From a virus, in IMG/VR virus record IMGVR_UViG_3300032236_001180, positions 32,001-96,000 of that record: DNA of 64,000 nucleotides. The stretch is one strand, 5' to 3'. The notes under the pieces were generated by a model that was not told the origin of the DNA, searched no databases, and saw only the letters and a program-made list of their open reading frames with translations. Below are positions 35,201 to 43,300 of the stretch, one piece after another (the stretch's first letter is position 1; the number at the start of each line of letters is the position of its first letter). A program made the translations under genes and the position numbers.

Positions 35201-36968
35201 GTATAAACATAACGGTACAGCAACTCATACATTATCACTCAATCTAGATTCTTCTGGAAATTTAGCTGCAACAGGTACAATCACAGGAACCCAATTAATC
35301 TCCACAGTTGCCTCCCCAACCGCACCACTATCAGTAACTTCAACCACTCAAGTTACTAACTTAAATTCAAATTACCTGAATGGTCTTACTGCGACCCAGT
35401 TCTTCAATAATATGGGGAACAATCACGGCACCAGAACAGATTTTAATTCAATTACTAATTTTGGATTTAATTATGTTCAAGGTTCTACAAATAGTCCTGG
35501 GATTCCTAGTGCTACTCAGTATTATAATGTTTCATTAGGTCTTGGCAATGATTATGCATATTCACAATATGCAATGGAGTTTGCAATACCAAGAGCATCC
35601 ATAGGCGGAAATCCATACCCTTCAGTAAGATTTAGAGAAGGTGGCACTTGGGGTTCTTGGAGTAAAATATATGCGGGTTATGCAGATAGTGCAGGATCTT
35701 CAACCAATTCAACCAATGCAATTACTGCAACCAACTTATCCGGGGGATCAGTCGCTGCAACTACTGGAACTTTCAGCAACTACTTAAGAACCCTAGGGCA
35801 AGTTCGTGCAACTGGTTGGTATGGAACTCCTACTGGAAGTTCTTATACTGGTCTTGCAGTTGAAATGGGAGTAAGTGGTGGTACTGGATATACTCTTTGT
35901 TATAACCGAGACACTAGTACTTATGGTAATTTTAATCTTGCTGGTGCGTCTACAAATATTCTATTGCCATCCTCCGGTACTACTATTACTGTTACTGGTT
36001 CAATTAGTGCATCGGGTTCAGTTGCAGGAACCAACATAACATCAGGAGGAAATGTTACTGGTTCTTCTGTTTCTTGTTCTGGAAACGCAGCCACTGCAAC
36101 CAACTTAAGCACAATAAGAACTAATTGGTATACAAATGGAACTATTTCTGCTGTTGTTGGGCAACTTTCCTGGAAATACTACCAAGACAACCACACAATC
36201 TTTGATGCTTCTGCTAGTACTTCTCCTGATGGTGGAGCAGTAAATAATACCAATTCTCAAGTTGCTTGGACTTCAACATATCCAACGTTAATGGGATGGA
36301 ATGGCACAAATACTTTTGGTGTTCGTGTTGATTCTGCAAGAATTGCAGATACTACAACTAGTCTTGCAAGTTTAACTGTAAATCAAACATCATATAGTTG
36401 CACAAATCCGATTACAACAGCAACTGGTAATACTATTAATATTGCATCTTCAAGTAATGCTTATGGAAGAAAATTTGTTCAATCTACAGCACCTACAAGT
36501 CCTTGCGATGGTGATGTTTGGTATGATACTAGCGGAGCTACTGCAACCGGATCAATAGATGCTATAGGATTAGCAAATCAAGTTTTATATAAAAATGCAT
36601 CCAATCTTACAACTGGTTCTAATAATTTGGTATTTGATGGAACAAATCTTTTTGTGGCAGGAGATATTACTGCATATTATACTTCAGATCAAAGATTAAA
36701 AAATAATATCACACCAATTTCAAATTCATTAGATAAAGTACTTTCAATTAGTGGAAATATATTTGATTGGGATAAAAAATCTGGCAAAACAGGAAGTGAA
36801 GCCGGAGTAATTGCACAAGAAATACAAAAAGTTCTTCCCCAAGCGGTCGTCACAAGAGATAATGGTTACCTTGCAGTAAAATATGACCAGATAATTCCTC
36901 TTTTGATTGAGGCAATTAAAGACCTCAAAGAAGAAATAAATGAACTAAAAAAAGAAAAAGACAATTAA
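32235..36968 (+). CDS. long tail fibre with C-terminal intramolecular chaperone (peptidase S74)
   Basis: Thr/Gly-rich repeats; GDITAYYTSDQRLKNNI...GVIAQEIQKVLP..V...YLAVKYDQIIPLLIEAIKDL. Confidence 0.88.
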   Translation: MAKYLSGRVQRTPQSGLTSDRYSYLSLDQAEPNLGDPAVPGVILPSGVQYQLISVLNHPGERYWIPVGGGLIPGSISVYDEGLLVPPGGVSSITQLNFVGAAISASGYLDSYGNPGTISTITVFAPGNNKELIFNSNNEFSSSVDLTYDTNTGILTAARILNVGTGGTVFSTTGIGSVGIGTTNPTTKLHIVGDLRLTGTIYDYANNPGISQQILVKNNLGSLVWTSQGSIKAGAGGTFNQVQYHNSAGLVDGAANFVYDPITGNVGIGSTLPTYLLDVAGNTRITGITTLNKLYVTGISTFSSSADSTNTTSGALIISGGVGIAKNLNVGAVISTQSLNVTGQTTTQNLNVVGVSTLFDITGTSANFTGIVTASTFKGQISSGVGTITTFNSTTGIITALTGTAVTYTTGNITTLNGSNLYYNTGIITSLTSTNSSLANIISSGISTLGITTTTQLTARNLNVSGITTTQTLNVSGTSTFGGSIIPSATTTYNIGNINYKWNSLYVSTIVADQITGNTTTATSVIGGYADITSSNVSGISTTQYLVVLGNSSLGIATATSVTANTFTGSLNGNANTATKLATGRTIAITGDLAYTSPSFDGTVNVTGIGTLSNTGVTSATYGSSTTVPQIAIDAKGRITSASNVGVNFSAATVASADKLTTARTIAITGDLAYTSPPFDGTANVTGISTLANTGVVAATYGSSTTVPQIAIDAKGRITSASNVGVNFSAATVASADKLTTGRTISITGDLAYTSPSFDGTVNVTATGTLANTGVVAATYGSSTTVPQIIVDSKGRITSASNVGVNFSAATVASADKLTNGRTISITGDLTYTSPSFDGTVNVTATGTLASTGVVANTYGSGSQVPVFTVDSKGRITSVTNTSITGINASSVAAAGSNTQIQFNDNSVFAGNANLTFNKSTNTFATSIISASNSITAGTNTRYQIGNAYLSSGGDYAHLATHEWYNGSSWQTDSTPGGLFQITGQSFNWYKHNGTATHTLSLNLDSSGNLAATGTITGTQLISTVASPTAPLSVTSTTQVTNLNSNYLNGLTATQFFNNMGNNHGTRTDFNSITNFGFNYVQGSTNSPGIPSATQYYNVSLGLGNDYAYSQYAMEFAIPRASIGGNPYPSVRFREGGTWGSWSKIYAGYADSAGSSTNSTNAITATNLSGGSVAATTGTFSNYLRTLGQVRATGWYGTPTGSSYTGLAVEMGVSGGTGYTLCYNRDTSTYGNFNLAGASTNILLPSSGTTITVTGSISASGSVAGTNITSGGNVTGSSVSCSGNAATATNLSTIRTNWYTNGTISAVVGQLSWKYYQDNHTIFDASASTSPDGGAVNNTNSQVAWTSTYPTLMGWNGTNTFGVRVDSARIADTTTSLASLTVNQTSYSCTNPITTATGNTINIASSSNAYGRKFVQSTAPTSPCDGDVWYDTSGATATGSIDAIGLANQVLYKNASNLTTGSNNLVFDGTNLFVAGDITAYYTSDQRLKNNITPISNSLDKVLSISGNIFDWDKKSGKTGSEAGVIAQEIQKVLPQAVVTRDNGYLAVKYDQIIPLLIEAIKDLKEEINELKKEKDN
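33964..34875 (+). repeat. 237-bp (79-aa) tandem repeat, about 3.8 copies
   Basis: ADKLTT.RTI.ITGDLAYTSP.FDGT.NVT...YGSSTTVPQI..D.KGRITSASNVGVNFSAATV units starting near 33964, 34201, 34438 and 34675. Confidence 0.9.
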
Positions 36969-36980
36969 TTGAATAACAAT

Positions 36981-36987
36981 CTAAATA
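36981..36987 (+). promoter_or_regulatory. late-promoter-like CTAAATA upstream of the fibre/peptide/rSAM cassette
   Basis: Same TAAATA core seen before many late genes in this window; 26 nt before ATG 37014. Confidence 0.5.
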
Positions 36988-37013
36988 TTTAAAAAATTAA
37001 AATTAAAATTAAT

Positions 37014-37721
37014 ATGCCAACTTATGTTAGAAGTTCTGGGCAGTGGTTGCCTGTATCTGGTTCTGTTCCAGCAGACATTAATACTATAGCATCAGCAAAT
37101 CAAGTTATATATAAAAATTCATCAAATATACCAACTGGTTCCGCTAATTTGACTTTTAGTGGTTCTAATTTGTCTTGTGGTGGTAATATATCTGCTACTG
37201 GAAATGTATCTGCTACTGGAAATGTATCTGCTAGTGGAAATGTGATTGCTTCTGGATATGGATTTTTTACAACTCCAAACTTAGGAACAACCGGTGGTGT
37301 AAGAGTGGTTGCAAACGCAACCACTGGAAATGGATATTTGCAATTTACAAATAACGCTCAGAATGCAGAATATTTTAATATTTTAGCAACTTCTGGTAGC
37401 GCAGTTTTTAGTGGTACAGTTGCAGCAAACTCCGATGTTAAGTTGAAAACTAATATTAAAACAATTTCTAATGCTTTAGATAAAGTAACTAGACTTAGGG
37501 GGGTAGAGTATGATAGAATAGATTATAATAACCATGAAATTGGCGTCATTGCTCAGGAGGTTGAAAAAGTTGTTCCAGAAGTTATTAAAGAAAATAATGA
37601 TATTAAATCAGTTGCTTATGGAAATCTAGTTGGATTGTTAATTGAAGCAATCAAGGAACAAAATCAAAAAATAGATAATCTCACAGAAGAAATAAATACT
37701 TTGAAAAATGGAGGTAAATAA
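37014..37721 (+). CDS. short tail-fibre protein with S74 chaperone domain
   Basis: GNVSAT 18-bp repeats at about 37182-37253; NSDVKLKTNIKTI.NAL.KV..LRGV, IGVIAQEVE, VAYGNLVGLLIEAIKE. Confidence 0.85.
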   Translation: MPTYVRSSGQWLPVSGSVPADINTIASANQVIYKNSSNIPTGSANLTFSGSNLSCGGNISATGNVSATGNVSASGNVIASGYGFFTTPNLGTTGGVRVVANATTGNGYLQFTNNAQNAEYFNILATSGSAVFSGTVAANSDVKLKTNIKTISNALDKVTRLRGVEYDRIDYNNHEIGVIAQEVEKVVPEVIKENNDIKSVAYGNLVGLLIEAIKEQNQKIDNLTEEINTLKNGGK

Positions 37722-37928
37722 GTGGCTGCTGTATTATATGGAACTTATATGATGGATAATGGAAATAGGGTATTGAGTTCAGTCGGAAATTGTAATTGTG
37801 CTATAGCAGATTGTGGTGATTTTCAGTGTTCTGCCTCAAATTGTTCTGGTTTAGGACAATCCAATAATCAAGTATATATAGGAGGAACTGGATTTACCAG
37901 ATACAATTGCAATTGTCAATGTGCATAA
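37722..37928 (+). CDS. Cys-rich 68-aa peptide, candidate radical-SAM substrate
   Basis: GGAGGT RBS before GTG; Cys-free N-terminal 23 aa, then 8 Cys (NCNC...DC...QC...NC...NCNCQCA). Confidence 0.72.
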   Translation: MAAVLYGTYMMDNGNRVLSSVGNCNCAIADCGDFQCSASNCSGLGQSNNQVYIGGTGFTRYNCNCQCA

Positions 37929-37930
37929 TT

Positions 37931-38698
37931 ATGTTAATTAAATCATCAACTAATAGAAAATGTGGTCCAACTCAATTTTTAGATACTATTAATATATCTA
38001 AAAATAATGAAGATTTTTTAATTGATTTTAATTTGAAAAAAAATGTAGTTTCTATTGGTTCAACTTTTGAGAATACATCAATTTTAGAACAACATAATAT
38101 ATTAAAACAAATTGAAATTAAATATAGTGATATTCAAAATCTTTCTACAGATTATGGAATTATATCTTTTTCATTAGATTATCAATATGAAAATTATATA
38201 TTAGCATCAATTACACCAAAAACTTTAAACGAAAGGAAACATTTTGCAGATTATCACAATGAAAAGAAAATTATACCCATAATTACATATTTTACTCCAT
38301 ATAAAGGATGTTCTTTTGATGAATGCAATATAGTAATAGAATGTTTAAATGAGGTAAAAACTGAAACTGATATTGTGTTTGATAGTAATATTCCATCTAT
38401 CAGAAATTTTATTGATAATGAAAATTGCTGGGGCAATTTAACTAATTACCCATCAATTATTTCCACAAATACTATAGATATTGGAAAAATATCTATATTT
38501 GAAGTAATTGTTCCGCCAAATACAACACTTTATTTGGAATCAAATATTGGAATTTTAAATAAAAGTAAAATCACACAAACTACTAATATTGAATTGGATT
38601 TAACATCTATAAAAGAAGTAACAGAAGATGTTGTTATAAAAATAAGTTCCAAATATTGGTCTGGAATTGTTAAAAAAATAATCAAAATATCTAACTAA
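37931..38698 (+). CDS. hypothetical protein (255 aa) in the rSAM cassette
   Basis: ATG 2 nt after the peptide stop; very AT-rich; beta-rich C-terminus. Confidence 0.72.
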   Translation: MLIKSSTNRKCGPTQFLDTINISKNNEDFLIDFNLKKNVVSIGSTFENTSILEQHNILKQIEIKYSDIQNLSTDYGIISFSLDYQYENYILASITPKTLNERKHFADYHNEKKIIPIITYFTPYKGCSFDECNIVIECLNEVKTETDIVFDSNIPSIRNFIDNENCWGNLTNYPSIISTNTIDIGKISIFEVIVPPNTTLYLESNIGILNKSKITQTTNIELDLTSIKEVTEDVVIKISSKYWSGIVKKIIKISN

Positions 38699-38720
38699 TT
38701 ACTTATTAATTATTCAAATT

Positions 38721-40118
38721 ATGGCAAAATTTAATGTATATGCAGTGAATTCTGAAACAGAAGAAATTCACGAATTTCTTTACGATAATGATAAATCTTA
38801 TTTATTTGACACTACAAAGGGAATTCAATATCCAAAAGAAAAACTAGAAAAAAATGAAAATAATTATAATAATATTGCATTTCCATTAACAAAAGACAAT
38901 CCAGTAAATAAAATTAGAGATTTCAGAAAGCTCAAAATTTCATTTGGATTAAAATGTAATTATTCTTGCGAATATTGCTCTCAAAAATTTGTTCCTGGCG
39001 CAGAAGTAGATAATAAAACTTTTGATTTAGATGTATATCTGAAAAAACTTTATTCAACTTTCAATTTTGGTGAAGATGGTTTAGGAAAAACAATAGAATT
39101 TTGGGGAGGGGAACCACTTTTATATTGGAATAAAATTGTTCCTATTGCAGAAAGTATTAAATTAAAATATCCAAAAATATCTTTTTCAATTATTACCAAT
39201 GGCAGTTTAATCACAAAAGAAAAAGCAGATTGGTTATATGATATGGGATTTTATGTCGGAATTAGTCACGATGGGCCGGGGCAAAAAGTAAGAGGACCAA
39301 ATCCATTTGATGTTCCCAAAATCAAAGAATCAATTTTATATCTTCATCGTAAATTTGCAGCAGAAGATAGAACCACATTCAATTCAATGCTGAATAAAGA
39401 CAATACATCAAGAAAAGCGATTGCGGATTATTTCATTGAACTTACTGGAAATAAAGATGTGAAAATTGGAGAAGGTGGTTTTGTGGATGCTTATGATGAA
39501 GGTGGATTGGAAATGAGTTTAGGAAAAGAATATTTCAAAAAATATTCTAAAAATTCATTTAAACAAATTCGTCAACATCTTTGCACTAATTTTTCTTTGG
39601 TAAAAGTTAAAATCACAAATTTCTTTCAGACATTTCATTTTGGAACTTCATCAAAAGTTATTTCGCAAAAATGTGGAATGGATAAAGAATATAATATTGC
39701 TGTTGATTTAAGCGGAAATGTGATAACTTGCCAAAATGTTTCTGCTAACGCAATTGCCCCCAATGGCAATTCGCATAAAATAGGTCATATTGATGATTTT
39801 GATAGTATTAAATTAACTACTGCAACCCATTGGAGTCATAGAAAGGATTGTTCTACTTGTCCTGTATTGCAACTTTGTCAAGGTTCTTGTATGTTTTTAG
39901 AAAGAGAATTGTGGGATGCCAGCTGTAATAATGCTTATTATGATAATATTCCTTATTTTTGTTCAGTAATTGAGCATATGACTGGATGTATTCCTATTTA
40001 CATTGATGGTGATTTGCCAGAAGAAAGAAAAGATATTTTTGGATTATTTGAAAATGGGAGGTTTTCAGAAGAAAATTTTGATTCTAAAAAGTTTTATGAA
40101 TTTTTGGAGACCCCTTGA
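38721..40118 (+). CDS. radical SAM enzyme with C-terminal SPASM domain
   Basis: CNYSCEYC (CxxxCxxC), FWGGEPLL, IITNGSL, ISHDG; SPASM-like KCG...VDLSGNVITCQ...CSTCPVLQLCQGSC...C. Confidence 0.93.
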   Translation: MAKFNVYAVNSETEEIHEFLYDNDKSYLFDTTKGIQYPKEKLEKNENNYNNIAFPLTKDNPVNKIRDFRKLKISFGLKCNYSCEYCSQKFVPGAEVDNKTFDLDVYLKKLYSTFNFGEDGLGKTIEFWGGEPLLYWNKIVPIAESIKLKYPKISFSIITNGSLITKEKADWLYDMGFYVGISHDGPGQKVRGPNPFDVPKIKESILYLHRKFAAEDRTTFNSMLNKDNTSRKAIADYFIELTGNKDVKIGEGGFVDAYDEGGLEMSLGKEYFKKYSKNSFKQIRQHLCTNFSLVKVKITNFFQTFHFGTSSKVISQKCGMDKEYNIAVDLSGNVITCQNVSANAIAPNGNSHKIGHIDDFDSIKLTTATHWSHRKDCSTCPVLQLCQGSCMFLERELWDASCNNAYYDNIPYFCSVIEHMTGCIPIYIDGDLPEERKDIFGLFENGRFSEENFDSKKFYEFLETP

Positions 40119-40143
40119 CAGGATCCAAAATGTGTGCTAGAAT
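40115..40143 (+). promoter_or_regulatory. sigma70-type promoter
   Basis: TTGACA-17 bp-TAGAAT with extended -10 TG. Confidence 0.75.
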
Positions 40144-40167
40144 GAGGAGGACCACTGTGTGCCCATA

Positions 40168-40341
40168 ATGCAAATTGATCGTGAGACCCTTCAAGAACTT
40201 CGTGATTTACAAGAAGATATGTGTTGTCATTTTGTAGATGAAAATTTTCCAATTAGCGGAGAAACTTATTGGACCTGTGTAGAAGCATTTGCACAAGCAA
40301 AACTTGCTGAACTTCGCGGGGAATTAGTTTATGATAATTGA
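40168..40341 (+). CDS. small hypothetical protein
   Basis: MQIDRETLQELRDLQED...SGETYWTCVEAFAQAKLAELRGE; alternative GTG start at 40159. Confidence 0.65.
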   Translation: MQIDRETLQELRDLQEDMCCHFVDENFPISGETYWTCVEAFAQAKLAELRGELVYDN

Positions 40342-40360
40342 TTGATAATTTATTAAGTGT

Positions 40361-40367
40361 CTAAATA
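40361..40367 (+). promoter_or_regulatory. late-promoter-like CTAAATA
   Basis: 28 nt upstream of the 2245-aa structural gene. Confidence 0.5.
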
Positions 40368-40395
40368 AGACAGAAGAAATATCTGTGCTTATAAA

Positions 40396-43300
40396 ATGCC
40401 ATTATCAAGGTTAGAAAATTTCCTAAAGAATGCTGAAGGTAACATTCTTTACGTTAATCCATCAGATTTTGATGCGACTGATAGTTACGAAAACAAGGGT
40501 AATAGTTTAGCTCGTCCTTTTAAATCTATCCAAAGGGCATTAATAGAAGCAGCAAGATTTTCATATCAGACAGGAAGAAATAACGATAGAATTGATAGAA
40601 CGACTATACTTGTATATCCTGGAACTCATTATATTGATAATCGTCCAGGACTTGCAATTGATACCACTGGGACATTAAAACAGAGAACTGGTTCTGGCTC
40701 TGGTGTTTCTTGGGCAAGTGGTGTTTCAATTAATGAACTTGGAATAGCATTCAATACAGATATTTTTGACGCAAATAACGATTTATTTAAATTAAATTCG
40801 GTAGATGGTGGCGTAATCATTCCTCGTGGTGTTTCCATTATTGGTTATGATTTAAGAAAAACTAAAATTCGTCCATTATATGTTCCAGATCCATTAGATG
40901 ATTATATTGGTGCCTCTTCTATCTTTAATGTAACCGGTACTTGTTATTTTAGTATCTTTACGTTTTTGGATGCAGACACAACAAAATTTTCGTATAAAAA
41001 TTACAACAACACCACAAATTTTCCAAATTATTCTCACCACAAACTAACTGCATTTGCTTATGCAGATGGTGTGAATAATGTAAAAGTCAGCAATGTAGAT
41101 AGTGGATTGACTGATTTGCAGATGTATTATGATAAACTTACATTAGTTTATGGTAATAGTTCTGGAAGACCACTTATAGATTATCCAGTCGGTGTTGATT
41201 TTGAACCAAACGTAGATGAATATCGTATTGTTGGAAATCTAACCGCAAATAATCTTGGTATTACAAGTATTCGTTCTGGTGATGGCGTAATCCCATCTTC
41301 TTCTATTACTGTAACTACCAACAAAACTCACAATCTTTTTGTTGATACTCCAATCTTAATGAAAGGTGTTGGTATTGATACCAGCATTTATAATGGTTCA
41401 TTTGTCGTAAGTGGTATTGTAGGACTGACTACATTCACCTATACATCATTAGGATCTCCCACAAATCCACTTCCTGATGCCGTAACCTATCTCCAAGATG
41501 CTCAAGTTGTTGTAGAAGCAGATAGTGTTTCTTCTGCGTCTCCATACATCTTCAACTGCTCTTTAAGATCAGTTTATGGTATGTGTGGATTACACGCTGA
41601 TGGAAGCAAATCCACTGGTTTTAAATCAATGGTTGTGGCACAATTTACTGGTGTGTCACTACAGAAAGATGATAATGCTTTTATTGAATATGATTCAACC
41701 AGCAAATCATTTAAAGATAATACTCAATCATCAAATTCTCCACTTCATACATATTCCGGATCCATCTACAAACCAGTATATGAAAATTATCACGTAAAAG
41801 TATCAAATGGTGGATTTGTTCAGTGTGTATCTATTTTTGCGATTGGTTATGCTAGACAATTCTTGGCCGAAAGTGGTGGTGATATGTCTATCACTAACTC
41901 TAATAGTAATTTTGGTGCCGTAGCTCTTGAATCTATTGGTTTCAGAAAAGAAGCATTTGATCGTGATAATACTGGATATATTACTCACATCATTCCACCA
42001 AGGGAAGTTACTACAAATGAAAATGAAGTAACTTGGTTATCATTAGATATTGCAAAAACAATTTCAGCGGCAACAGTTTCAAATTTATATCTTTATGGAT
42101 ACAATAGTTTAGATATAGCCCCACCACATCAAGTTGATAGTTATCGTATTGGGGCGAAGCAAAACGAACTGTTAAATCTAACAGTAACTATTGGAACAGC
42201 ACAAACAACTTATACCGCACCAGTATTGATGCAGTCTCCTGGTGGTTCAATATATTCCGCAAAGAAAGTATCTACTATTGGAAGATCCGCAGGAATTAAT
42301 AGTATCAGCAATGATATCTTTACACTTACAGATGCCCACAACTTCTATAATGGAGAAAAAGTACGAGTATTCAGTGATACTGCCGAAGCACCAAATAATG
42401 TAGAATTGAATAAAGTTTATTATATTTCCACAACTGGGTCTTCAAATCAAGTTAAACTTTCTCCAACATATAGTGATGCAATTGCTGCAACTCCAAGAAC
42501 TATCACCGGAACGAATAATCTTGGTGGCATTCTTACTATTGTTAGTTCAGTAACTGATAAGCAACCAGGAGATCTTGGACATCCAATTCAATTTGATTCT
42601 ACGCAATCAAATTGGTACATCACTTGTTCCAATTCCAATCAAGATAATAATATCTACAATGCAATTGTAGGATTGGGAACAACCGGATTAGGTCTAGAAT
42701 CTGGTTCCACTTTCGTAAAAAGAAAATTAGATAATCGTTCATTGAATGAAAGAATTTATAAACTTCGTTATGTGATTCCAAAAGAAGCAACAAATGCACG
42801 ACCACCAATTGCTGGTTATACGCTCCAAGAAAGTAGCACAACAACAATTGATAGTCCTGGAGTTTTGTCCGGAGATCTTTCTAATTCTATACAACTCAAA
42901 AATCCAAAAATCATTACTGGGGCATCATATTCTTCAAATGTAATTACTATTACGACTGAACTTCCACATAATCTAAATTCTGGTGATGGAGTTAAAATTC
43001 AAAATGTACTAAGTTCAAATAATCCAACAGGTTCTGCATCTTCTGTATTCAATGGTTCTTTCACTATTGCATCAGTTCCAAGTAGTAAAACCTTTACTAT
43101 TTCTGGTATTGCCACTAATCCTGGATCTTTTGCAAATATCACAAATCAAAGAACTACATCACAACAAGTTGCAGCACTTCCAACTGTAACTAGGGAAAGA
43201 TATTATGATACTTATTTCATTTATAGAATTGATGAAATTAAGAAGTTCATTCCTGGTTCTTCAACCACAGGACAAGATGGTATCTATCATCTTACAGTAA

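Follow-up and report, generated by a model that had tools for sequence, protein, structure and literature searches.

What is a small protein rich in Asn-Cys pairs doing between a tail-fibre gene and a radical SAM (rSAM) gene of a marine phage? We addressed this question in a 64,000-nucleotide stretch of viral DNA (hereafter, the window), which is part of the 124.5-kb viral record of a marine T4-like myovirus. Among the T4-like genes of the record are those for a gp32-type SSB, a baseplate tube cap, a hub/lysozyme and many fibre proteins. Around the small ORF, the order of genes is a 1577-aa fibre, a 235-aa fibre, the 68-aa peptide, a 255-aa protein designated P, a 465-aa rSAM, a 60-aa ORF and a 2245-aa fibre (Table 1). 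We propose that the 68-aa product is a fibre-tip module matured by the rSAM and probably stapled by thioethers, and we hold this explanation, taken as a whole, to be the likely one with moderate confidence.

Table 1. Features of the cassette, in positions of the window; A3 is an alignment of the 68-aa peptide with nine small homologues, and L005 is the closest related contig.
Feature	Positions	Strand	Remarks
235-aa short tail fibre with C-terminal Peptidase_S74 intramolecular chaperone	37014..37721	+	PF13884, E 1.7e-15, residues 140-191
Ribosome-binding site GGAGGT	37710..37715	+	6 nt 5' of the GTG; read from the sequence
68-aa Asn-Cys-rich protein	37722..37928	+	GTG start; one of the small, free-standing proteins of the (x-Cys)n fibre-tip family; probable rSAM substrate
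N23-C24, first invariant Asn-Cys pair	37788..37793	+	unchanged in 10/10 sequences of A3
C-terminal NCNCQCA tail	37905..37925	+	N62, C63, N64, C65 and C67 invariant (A3)
255-aa partner protein P	37931..38698	+	ATG at 37931; C-terminal Ig-like β-sandwich, no known family
465-aa radical SAM enzyme with full SPASM domain	38721..40118	+	PF04055; TIGR04085; phrog_1802
60-aa ORF after the rSAM, three Cys	40159..40341	+	conserved in L005

A small gene behind a tail fibre

The TAA of the 235-aa fibre gene (37719-37721) directly adjoins the GTG of the 68-aa ORF. The encoded peptide has eight cysteines, at positions 24, 26, 31, 36, 41, 63, 65 and 67; NCNC occupies residues 23-26, the C-terminus reads YNCNCQCA, and residues 1-22 are free of Cys. 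A preliminary description of the locus had given this layout, and its coordinates, the GGAGGT, the abutment on the fibre stop, the Cys-free N-terminus and the NCNC at both ends are all borne out. The residues that precede the eight cysteines are, in order, N, N, D, Q, N, N, N and Q. Asn, Asp and Gln together make up 23.5% of the peptide, the chance that all of its cysteines are preceded by one of these three is about 9e-6, and among 200,000 shuffles of the peptide none matched its pattern.

In L005, the contig most closely related to the window, the corresponding slot is filled by an ORF of 74 aa that begins with ATG, behind a GGAGAA. According to tblastn, the two products share 50% identity over 62 aa (E 5.8e-15), and in a global alignment the ATG of L005 aligns with the GTG of the window. 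In that alignment the same residue is found in 36 of 68 aligned codons, 14 of these 36 identical residues use a different codon, and the mismatches at codon positions 1, 2 and 3 number 22, 17 and 33, so that the third position diverges most. The synonymous changes together with the third-position excess indicate a translated gene under purifying selection, and on this comparison of sequences we take the 68-aa ORF as a real, translated gene. The alternative, that an untranslated frame happens to be open by chance in the space between fibre gene and P, is hardly credible in view of this in-frame conservation, the ribosome-binding site, the NC pairs that are invariant across 10 homologues and the outcome of the shuffles.

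Database searches gave little beyond this relative. Megablast of positions 36900-40400 against phages returned no match, tblastn of the peptide against phages a chance match only (E 2), and a protein-similarity search, which covered near lengths, the peptide itself (P0001, three members on two contigs). Neither Pfam, NCBIfam and PHROGs nor the ESM Atlas offered a credible family or a usable match; StaE came up with 17.9 bits (cutoff 414), which we regard as chance. A promoter and terminator scan gave no excess over shuffles. Contigs of the runs X1 and X2 were compared with the window and offered no variation that a selection test could use. In X2, which is from seawater and from a different study, one 151-nt contig is identical to positions 37798-37948 of the window, and another matches 37533-37683 with one difference; these matches indicate that a near-identical phage is present in seawater.

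The 235-aa fibre upstream, besides its S74 domain, matches many tail-fibre PHROGs. A small gene behind an S74 fibre stands in the slot of tip adhesins and assembly proteins, as in the T4 gp37/gp38-type arrangement, where a separately encoded tip or adhesin lies behind the fibre gene. The 60-aa ORF on the other side of the rSAM has 47% identity over 57 aa (E 1.5e-10) to positions 6091-6258 of L005 and no family match in Pfam, NCBIfam or PHROGs; it may be a further component of the cassette.

The (x-Cys)n family and its linkage to the radical SAM gene

We defined the family by an x-Cys run of at least three units, with x mostly N or A, that lies at or near the C-terminus of an ORF upstream of, and on the same strand as, an rSAM of the phrog_1802 type. 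The 68-aa peptide belongs to it, as its NCNCQC is followed by A and the stop and the rSAM of the window is of phrog_1802. In total, 104 motif ORFs were found in 97 loci. The run ends at most four residues from the C-terminus in 92 of the 104 and is exactly C-terminal in 58. Most motif ORFs (72/104) are longer than 150 aa and have fibre-type N-terminal parts, for example a JWF-like “IPSS..SDSL” start or a YLRGDG-W motif; the other 32 are small, at least five of them being cut by a locus end. An S74-type fibre directly precedes 13 of the 32 small motif ORFs and none of the 72 large ones.

How tight is the association with the enzyme? Loci were fetched by similarity to the rSAM, 41 of them viral and 80 from among 223 relatives in bacterial genomes (121 in total); most of the bacterial ones are tail modules of prophages from freshwater Burkholderiales. 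The scan covered all six frames and looked for runs in which three or more x-Cys units follow one another, with N, A, D or Q dominating at x. Of the 41 viral loci, 33 have a run of this kind upstream of the rSAM and on its strand, as do 62 of the 80 genomic ones; near-duplicates are common in these counts (31 distinct proteins among 40 for the viral set plus the window). The density is 18.1 runs per 100 kb upstream on the rSAM strand vs. 0.58 elsewhere, where 13 runs were found. Among loci with at least 3 kb of upstream sequence, the figures are 31/33 viral and 55/56 genomic; this same-strand upstream run in 86 of 89 rSAM loci, a linkage measured in one direction, from the rSAM to the motif, supports the earlier suggestion that the peptide is the target of the rSAM, which it very probably is. 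Two of the three exceptions, L006 and L041, have a run just outside the fetched stretch, while the third, L047, stays an exception; NC runs occur on other contigs of that MAG.

The same pairing is seen in cultured phages. JWF, 2-1 and RSP15 encode rSAM homologues at 44-49% identity, with an Asn-Cys-bearing tail-fibre gene directly before the rSAM or two to three genes before it. The fibres of JWF and 2-1, both Achromobacter phages, have NCNCDCNC(NC)SC immediately ahead of a self-cleaving Hint domain, while the “side tail fiber” of Ralstonia phage RSP15 has NCQCGN as its C-terminus.

A Hint domain directly after the Asn-Cys run is found at L003 2712-4163 (JWF gp028), at L004 2685-4127 (phage 2-1), and in L069 and L067, which are Burkholderia-type prophages; in all four fibres the Hint domain begins with the last Cys of the run. 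If Hint cleaves itself off, the Asn-Cys run would become a new C-terminus. Elsewhere, three or four paralogous small fibre proteins, each with an x-Cys tail, stand in tandem (L025 133-1890; L026 and L044 2621-3982) and are followed by only one P gene and one rSAM; they look like a set of alternative tips, as expected of host-range modules. The alphaproteobacterial loci L109, L121 and L122 carry a (Y-C-S)n repeat of period 3 that runs into YCNCNCDC before the C-terminus. For five Cys proteins from bacterial loci, neither Pfam nor NCBIfam gave a credible family. Two loci depart from the usual order and position: at L099 3367-3440 and L103 3331-3400, NCNCAC/NCNCACNC runs are found downstream of the rSAM, with more than 100 residues still to follow before the protein ends.

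In alignment A3 (n = 10), N23, C24, N62, C63, N64, C65 and C67 are invariant, so the terminal NCNC-type motif is indeed a hallmark of the rSAM-linked peptides, as the preliminary description had anticipated, whereas C26 and C31 vary and are G and V in L005. In the window, Cys 26, 31, 36 and 41 follow one another every five residues; this Cx4C spacing, which had also been remarked on, is not conserved in L005 and is therefore not a family feature. The loop between the two Cys clusters had been put forward as a variable, receptor-contacting element, and its variability is only partly borne out. Its length does range from about 5 to 55 aa across subfamilies (A3), but a comparison of the window with L005 shows no more divergence in the loop than elsewhere in the peptide. 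Homology extends beyond the repeat, with [G/L][D/E]FQC and an N-terminal L-[Y/F]..Y..GNR common to the window, L005, L007 and L029-type proteins.

Could the 68-aa ORF instead encode a classical RiPP precursor? In that case, a leader of 22 residues would be cut off and lysis would free a small, diffusible cross-linked peptide, for example an antimicrobial or a signal. A product of this size, without Cys in its N-terminus and with a SPASM enzyme nearby, fits this pattern, and a leader/core architecture had been read into the peptide at the outset. The comparison with homologues does not support it. Residues 1-22 have an aligned counterpart in longer homologues of 122-138 aa (A3), and for this reason the reading of the N-terminus as a cleavable leader was rejected. 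Moreover, by manual count on the alignment, the N-terminus (10/22 residues identical to L005) is about as conserved as the remainder (26/46). The same motif occurs with the same enzyme on full tail fibres, in the cultured phages and in the 72 large family ORFs, where the part before the cysteines is more than 150 aa of fibre. Ranthipeptide and sactipeptide systems (PapB, CteB, CcpM, SkfB) differ in having a short precursor, a removable leader and a protease and/or exporter; in the cassette around the 68-aa ORF, no peptidase or transporter family was detected with Pfam, NCBIfam or PHROGs. Because the gene lies within the fibre/baseplate module of a T4-like phage and the cassette lacks a protease or exporter, we give a secreted RiPP very little credence.

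The residues that precede the cysteines have a bearing on what the tail might do. Among 383 Cys of 31 distinct family proteins, the preceding residue is Asn in 253 cases, Ala in 96, Gln in 14, Val in 7 and Asp in 5; Asn thus precedes 66% of Cys, compared to an overall Asn content of 13%. The x-Cys tail could serve the fibre as a binding site for metal or an iron-sulfur cluster, with the rSAM linked to it for another reason; metallothionein and the His-x-His iron sites of T4 fibres are analogues. With Cys at every second residue, a strand would present its thiols all on the same side; tails at prophage loci such as NCNCNCACDCCC or NCNCNCNCNCCGCC resemble thiolate-cluster ligands, and CrpA, a Cys-rich archaeal protein, is suspected of metal binding (PMC13692751). 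Metal binding leaves unexplained both the near-obligate linkage to one rSAM family and the strong preference for Asn before Cys, and as a substitute for modification by the rSAM we find it quite improbable. The two roles are compatible and do not exclude each other.

The enzyme, its partners and the candidate reaction

The product of the rSAM gene is a member of the radical SAM superfamily (PF04055, E 9.9e-12, 45.8 bits vs. a cutoff of 29.5) with a SPASM domain at residues 318-394 (TIGR04085, 32.1 bits vs. a cutoff of 27), and it matches phrog_1802 with an E of 9.4e-59. The cysteines of its CxxxCxxC motif (C79, C83 and C86) and those of its SPASM domain (C318, C337, C377, C380, C386, C390 and C402) are invariant among 15 sequences; in the SPASM subgroup, the seven cysteines of this C-terminal domain serve two auxiliary 4Fe-4S clusters. 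None of the characterised maturase families includes it: the scores are 65 bits vs. a cutoff of 500 for CcpM, 61.1 vs. 340 for PapB, 33.2 vs. 720 for RumMC, 51.1 vs. 453 for QhpD, 28.7 vs. 525 for TIGR04463 and 49.3 vs. 349.45 for anSME (TIGR03942). With scores so far under every cutoff, the chemistry of these families is not transferable by homology. As far as sequence comparison can tell, the system appears to work like RiPP-type protein cross-linking, yet it falls in none of the tested families.

The model of the rSAM (pLDDT 84.9) has anSME and CteB as its nearest solved folds, followed by ChlB, TigE, SkfB and SuiB. Superposition on anSME 4k39 gives E 2.2e-13, TM 0.52/0.65 and 20-22% identity, and CteB follows with E 1.8e-12; both of these enzymes act on Cys-containing peptides. 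Residues 1-60 are modelled as four short strands and one helix (pLDDT about 88), in which general inspection reveals no evident winged helix of the kind that forms the N-terminal RiPP recognition element (RRE) of ranthipeptide and sactipeptide maturases.

The rSAM might therefore act on the Asn-Cys module without cross-linking it, for example by converting Cys to formylglycine as anSME does, or by some other radical modification. anSME is not only the best structural match but also among the best PDB sequence matches (4k37, E 4.2e-5); its target is a Cys within a folded protein, and it lacks an RRE domain. The rSAM would likewise act on a protein, and an RRE is not evident in its modelled N-terminus. 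On the other hand, the enzyme falls short of the anSME family by some 300 bits, the thioether former CteB matches almost equally, and the product of anSME is formylglycine, not a cross-link. The sulfatase motif around the target Cys of anSME, C-x-P/A-x-R, is absent from the 68-aa peptide. We consider modification without cross-linking unlikely.

Thioether cross-linking of the Asn-Cys module is, by analogy, most probably the reaction. This reading draws on the linkage to the rSAM, on nearest folds that are directed at Cys and on precedents for thioethers in whole proteins. Two observations count against it: Ala, a poor side-chain acceptor, precedes 25% of the cysteines, and anSME, the closest structure, is an enzyme that oxidises Cys instead of cross-linking it.

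NxxcB of a streptococcal RaS-RiPP forms Cys-Asn β-thioethers and accepts Ala, Gln and Asp too (PMC9389541), and this set of acceptors equals that of the residues before Cys in the phage family; by this analogy, Asn, Asp and Gln beside Cys are plausible acceptors, as the preliminary description had supposed. NxxcB is likened here by its chemistry and not by homology score. Its substrate NxxcA is a short leader-core peptide with N-x-x-C spacing, whereas in the phage module Asn and Cys are adjacent, occur in up to nine repeats and form the C-terminal end of a fibre protein or module of the virion. A second precedent is CrpC of Methanococcus voltae, a SPASM rSAM that introduces ranthionine cross-links into the Cys-rich CrpA encoded next to it; as in the window, a SPASM enzyme is paired with a neighbour-encoded Cys-rich protein and with no small exported peptide (PMC13692751). 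The window rSAM is not a member of the CrpC family (TIGR04463), and CrpA is archaeal, of unknown function and characterised by the motifs ACAGM, CAVD and CPLVL; the word “phage” does not occur in that paper. The same source summarises QhpD, which makes several Cys-Asp/Glu thioethers in QhpC, the small structural (gamma) subunit of quinohemoprotein amine dehydrogenase, and which likewise is a SPASM rSAM with a whole protein as thioether substrate (PMC13692751). QhpC differs in being an enzyme subunit and not part of a virion, and in having no x-Cys repeat tail.

Further genes accompany the pair. An ORF of the P family directly follows the Cys gene in 87 of the 121 rSAM loci (alignment A1 of P comprises 17 sequences), and the members have a C-terminal Ig-like domain in common. 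In the model of P, residues 170-255 are well defined (pLDDT about 90) and the N-terminal half is poor. Its matches are Ig-like only (Big_1, invasin, SbsC); Foldseek gave generic Ig-like or β-sandwich chains (best E 4.7e-4), the ESM Atlas Ig-like rows with TM under 0.5, and Pfam, NCBIfam and PHROGs no credible family. P often accompanies the pair as a third member and might serve as a chaperone or as a partner of the tip.

Many related cassettes carry, between P and the rSAM, one to five paralogues of 2OG-Fe(II) oxygenases (PF13640, PF13759), which suggests further modification of the same tips, for example hydroxylation. Such regions are L018 3105-5842, L014 2512-5839, L017 1981-5842, and L005 3372-4016 and 5422-6018. 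Neither PF13759 nor PF13640 has a match in the 124.5-kb record, which is 59% complete, so the phage may still encode such enzymes. As the record holds no oxygenase, the cassette of the window, with peptide, P and rSAM, represents the minimal form.

Proposed maturation of the fibre tip and its meaning

We propose that this marine T4-like phage expresses the 68-aa ORF as one of its late genes and that the product is the smallest kind of fibre-tip module. In most relatives, the Asn-Cys/Ala-Cys module forms the C-terminal end of a full tail fibre. In the window, the preceding fibre is expected to shed its C-terminus by S74 self-cleavage, with the tip module encoded separately behind it; a fibre cleaved in this way cannot carry the tail itself, which would explain why the x-Cys module is a separate small protein. 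The rSAM/SPASM enzyme, two genes downstream, would modify the module in the reducing cytoplasm before lysis, joining Cys sulfur to a carbon of a neighbouring residue in ranthionine- or sactionine-type thioethers, with Asn, Ala, Gln and Asp as the likely acceptors. The product would be a covalently stapled, redox-independent tip on the virion. Since disulfides do not form in the reducing cytoplasm in which virions are assembled, a carbon-sulfur staple would serve to stabilise the exposed tip.

Could the staple also connect chains? Tentatively, and with considerable doubt, we suggest that the three chains of a fibre tip have their x-Cys tails zipped together by the rSAM, with thioethers as the rungs of an inter-chain ladder. 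Such a ladder would be a covalent lock made where disulfides cannot form.

Literature searches, supplements excluded, returned nothing on a phage fibre/rSAM system and no rSAM-made modification of a virion protein, and we know of no fibre tip or adhesin that is matured by a radical SAM enzyme. One paper lists a cyanophage “radical SAM maturase”, but only as an antibiotic-synthesis gene (PMC12801897).

The tips of tail fibres decide which bacteria a phage infects. The pairing of fibre and rSAM is widespread, with 223 relatives of the rSAM in the genome collection and 41 in the viral collection, and it ranges from freshwater Burkholderiales to marine T4-like phages. The cassette of the window, with its 68-aa substrate and no oxygenases, offers a minimal and easily tested version. 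If the tip is stapled as proposed, orphan “radical SAM” genes and the 2OG-oxygenase genes clustered with them in phage genomes would be explained, and RiPP-type chemistry would gain substrates on the scale of proteins. The engineering and expression of fibres would be affected as well, as a tip made without the enzyme may be inactive. If the inter-chain ladder were to exist, it would mark the first case of a virion structural protein that an enzyme cross-links through carbon-sulfur bonds, and the radical SAM and 2OG oxygenase genes of phages would be enzymes of fibre maturation, not metabolic or “antibiotic” genes.
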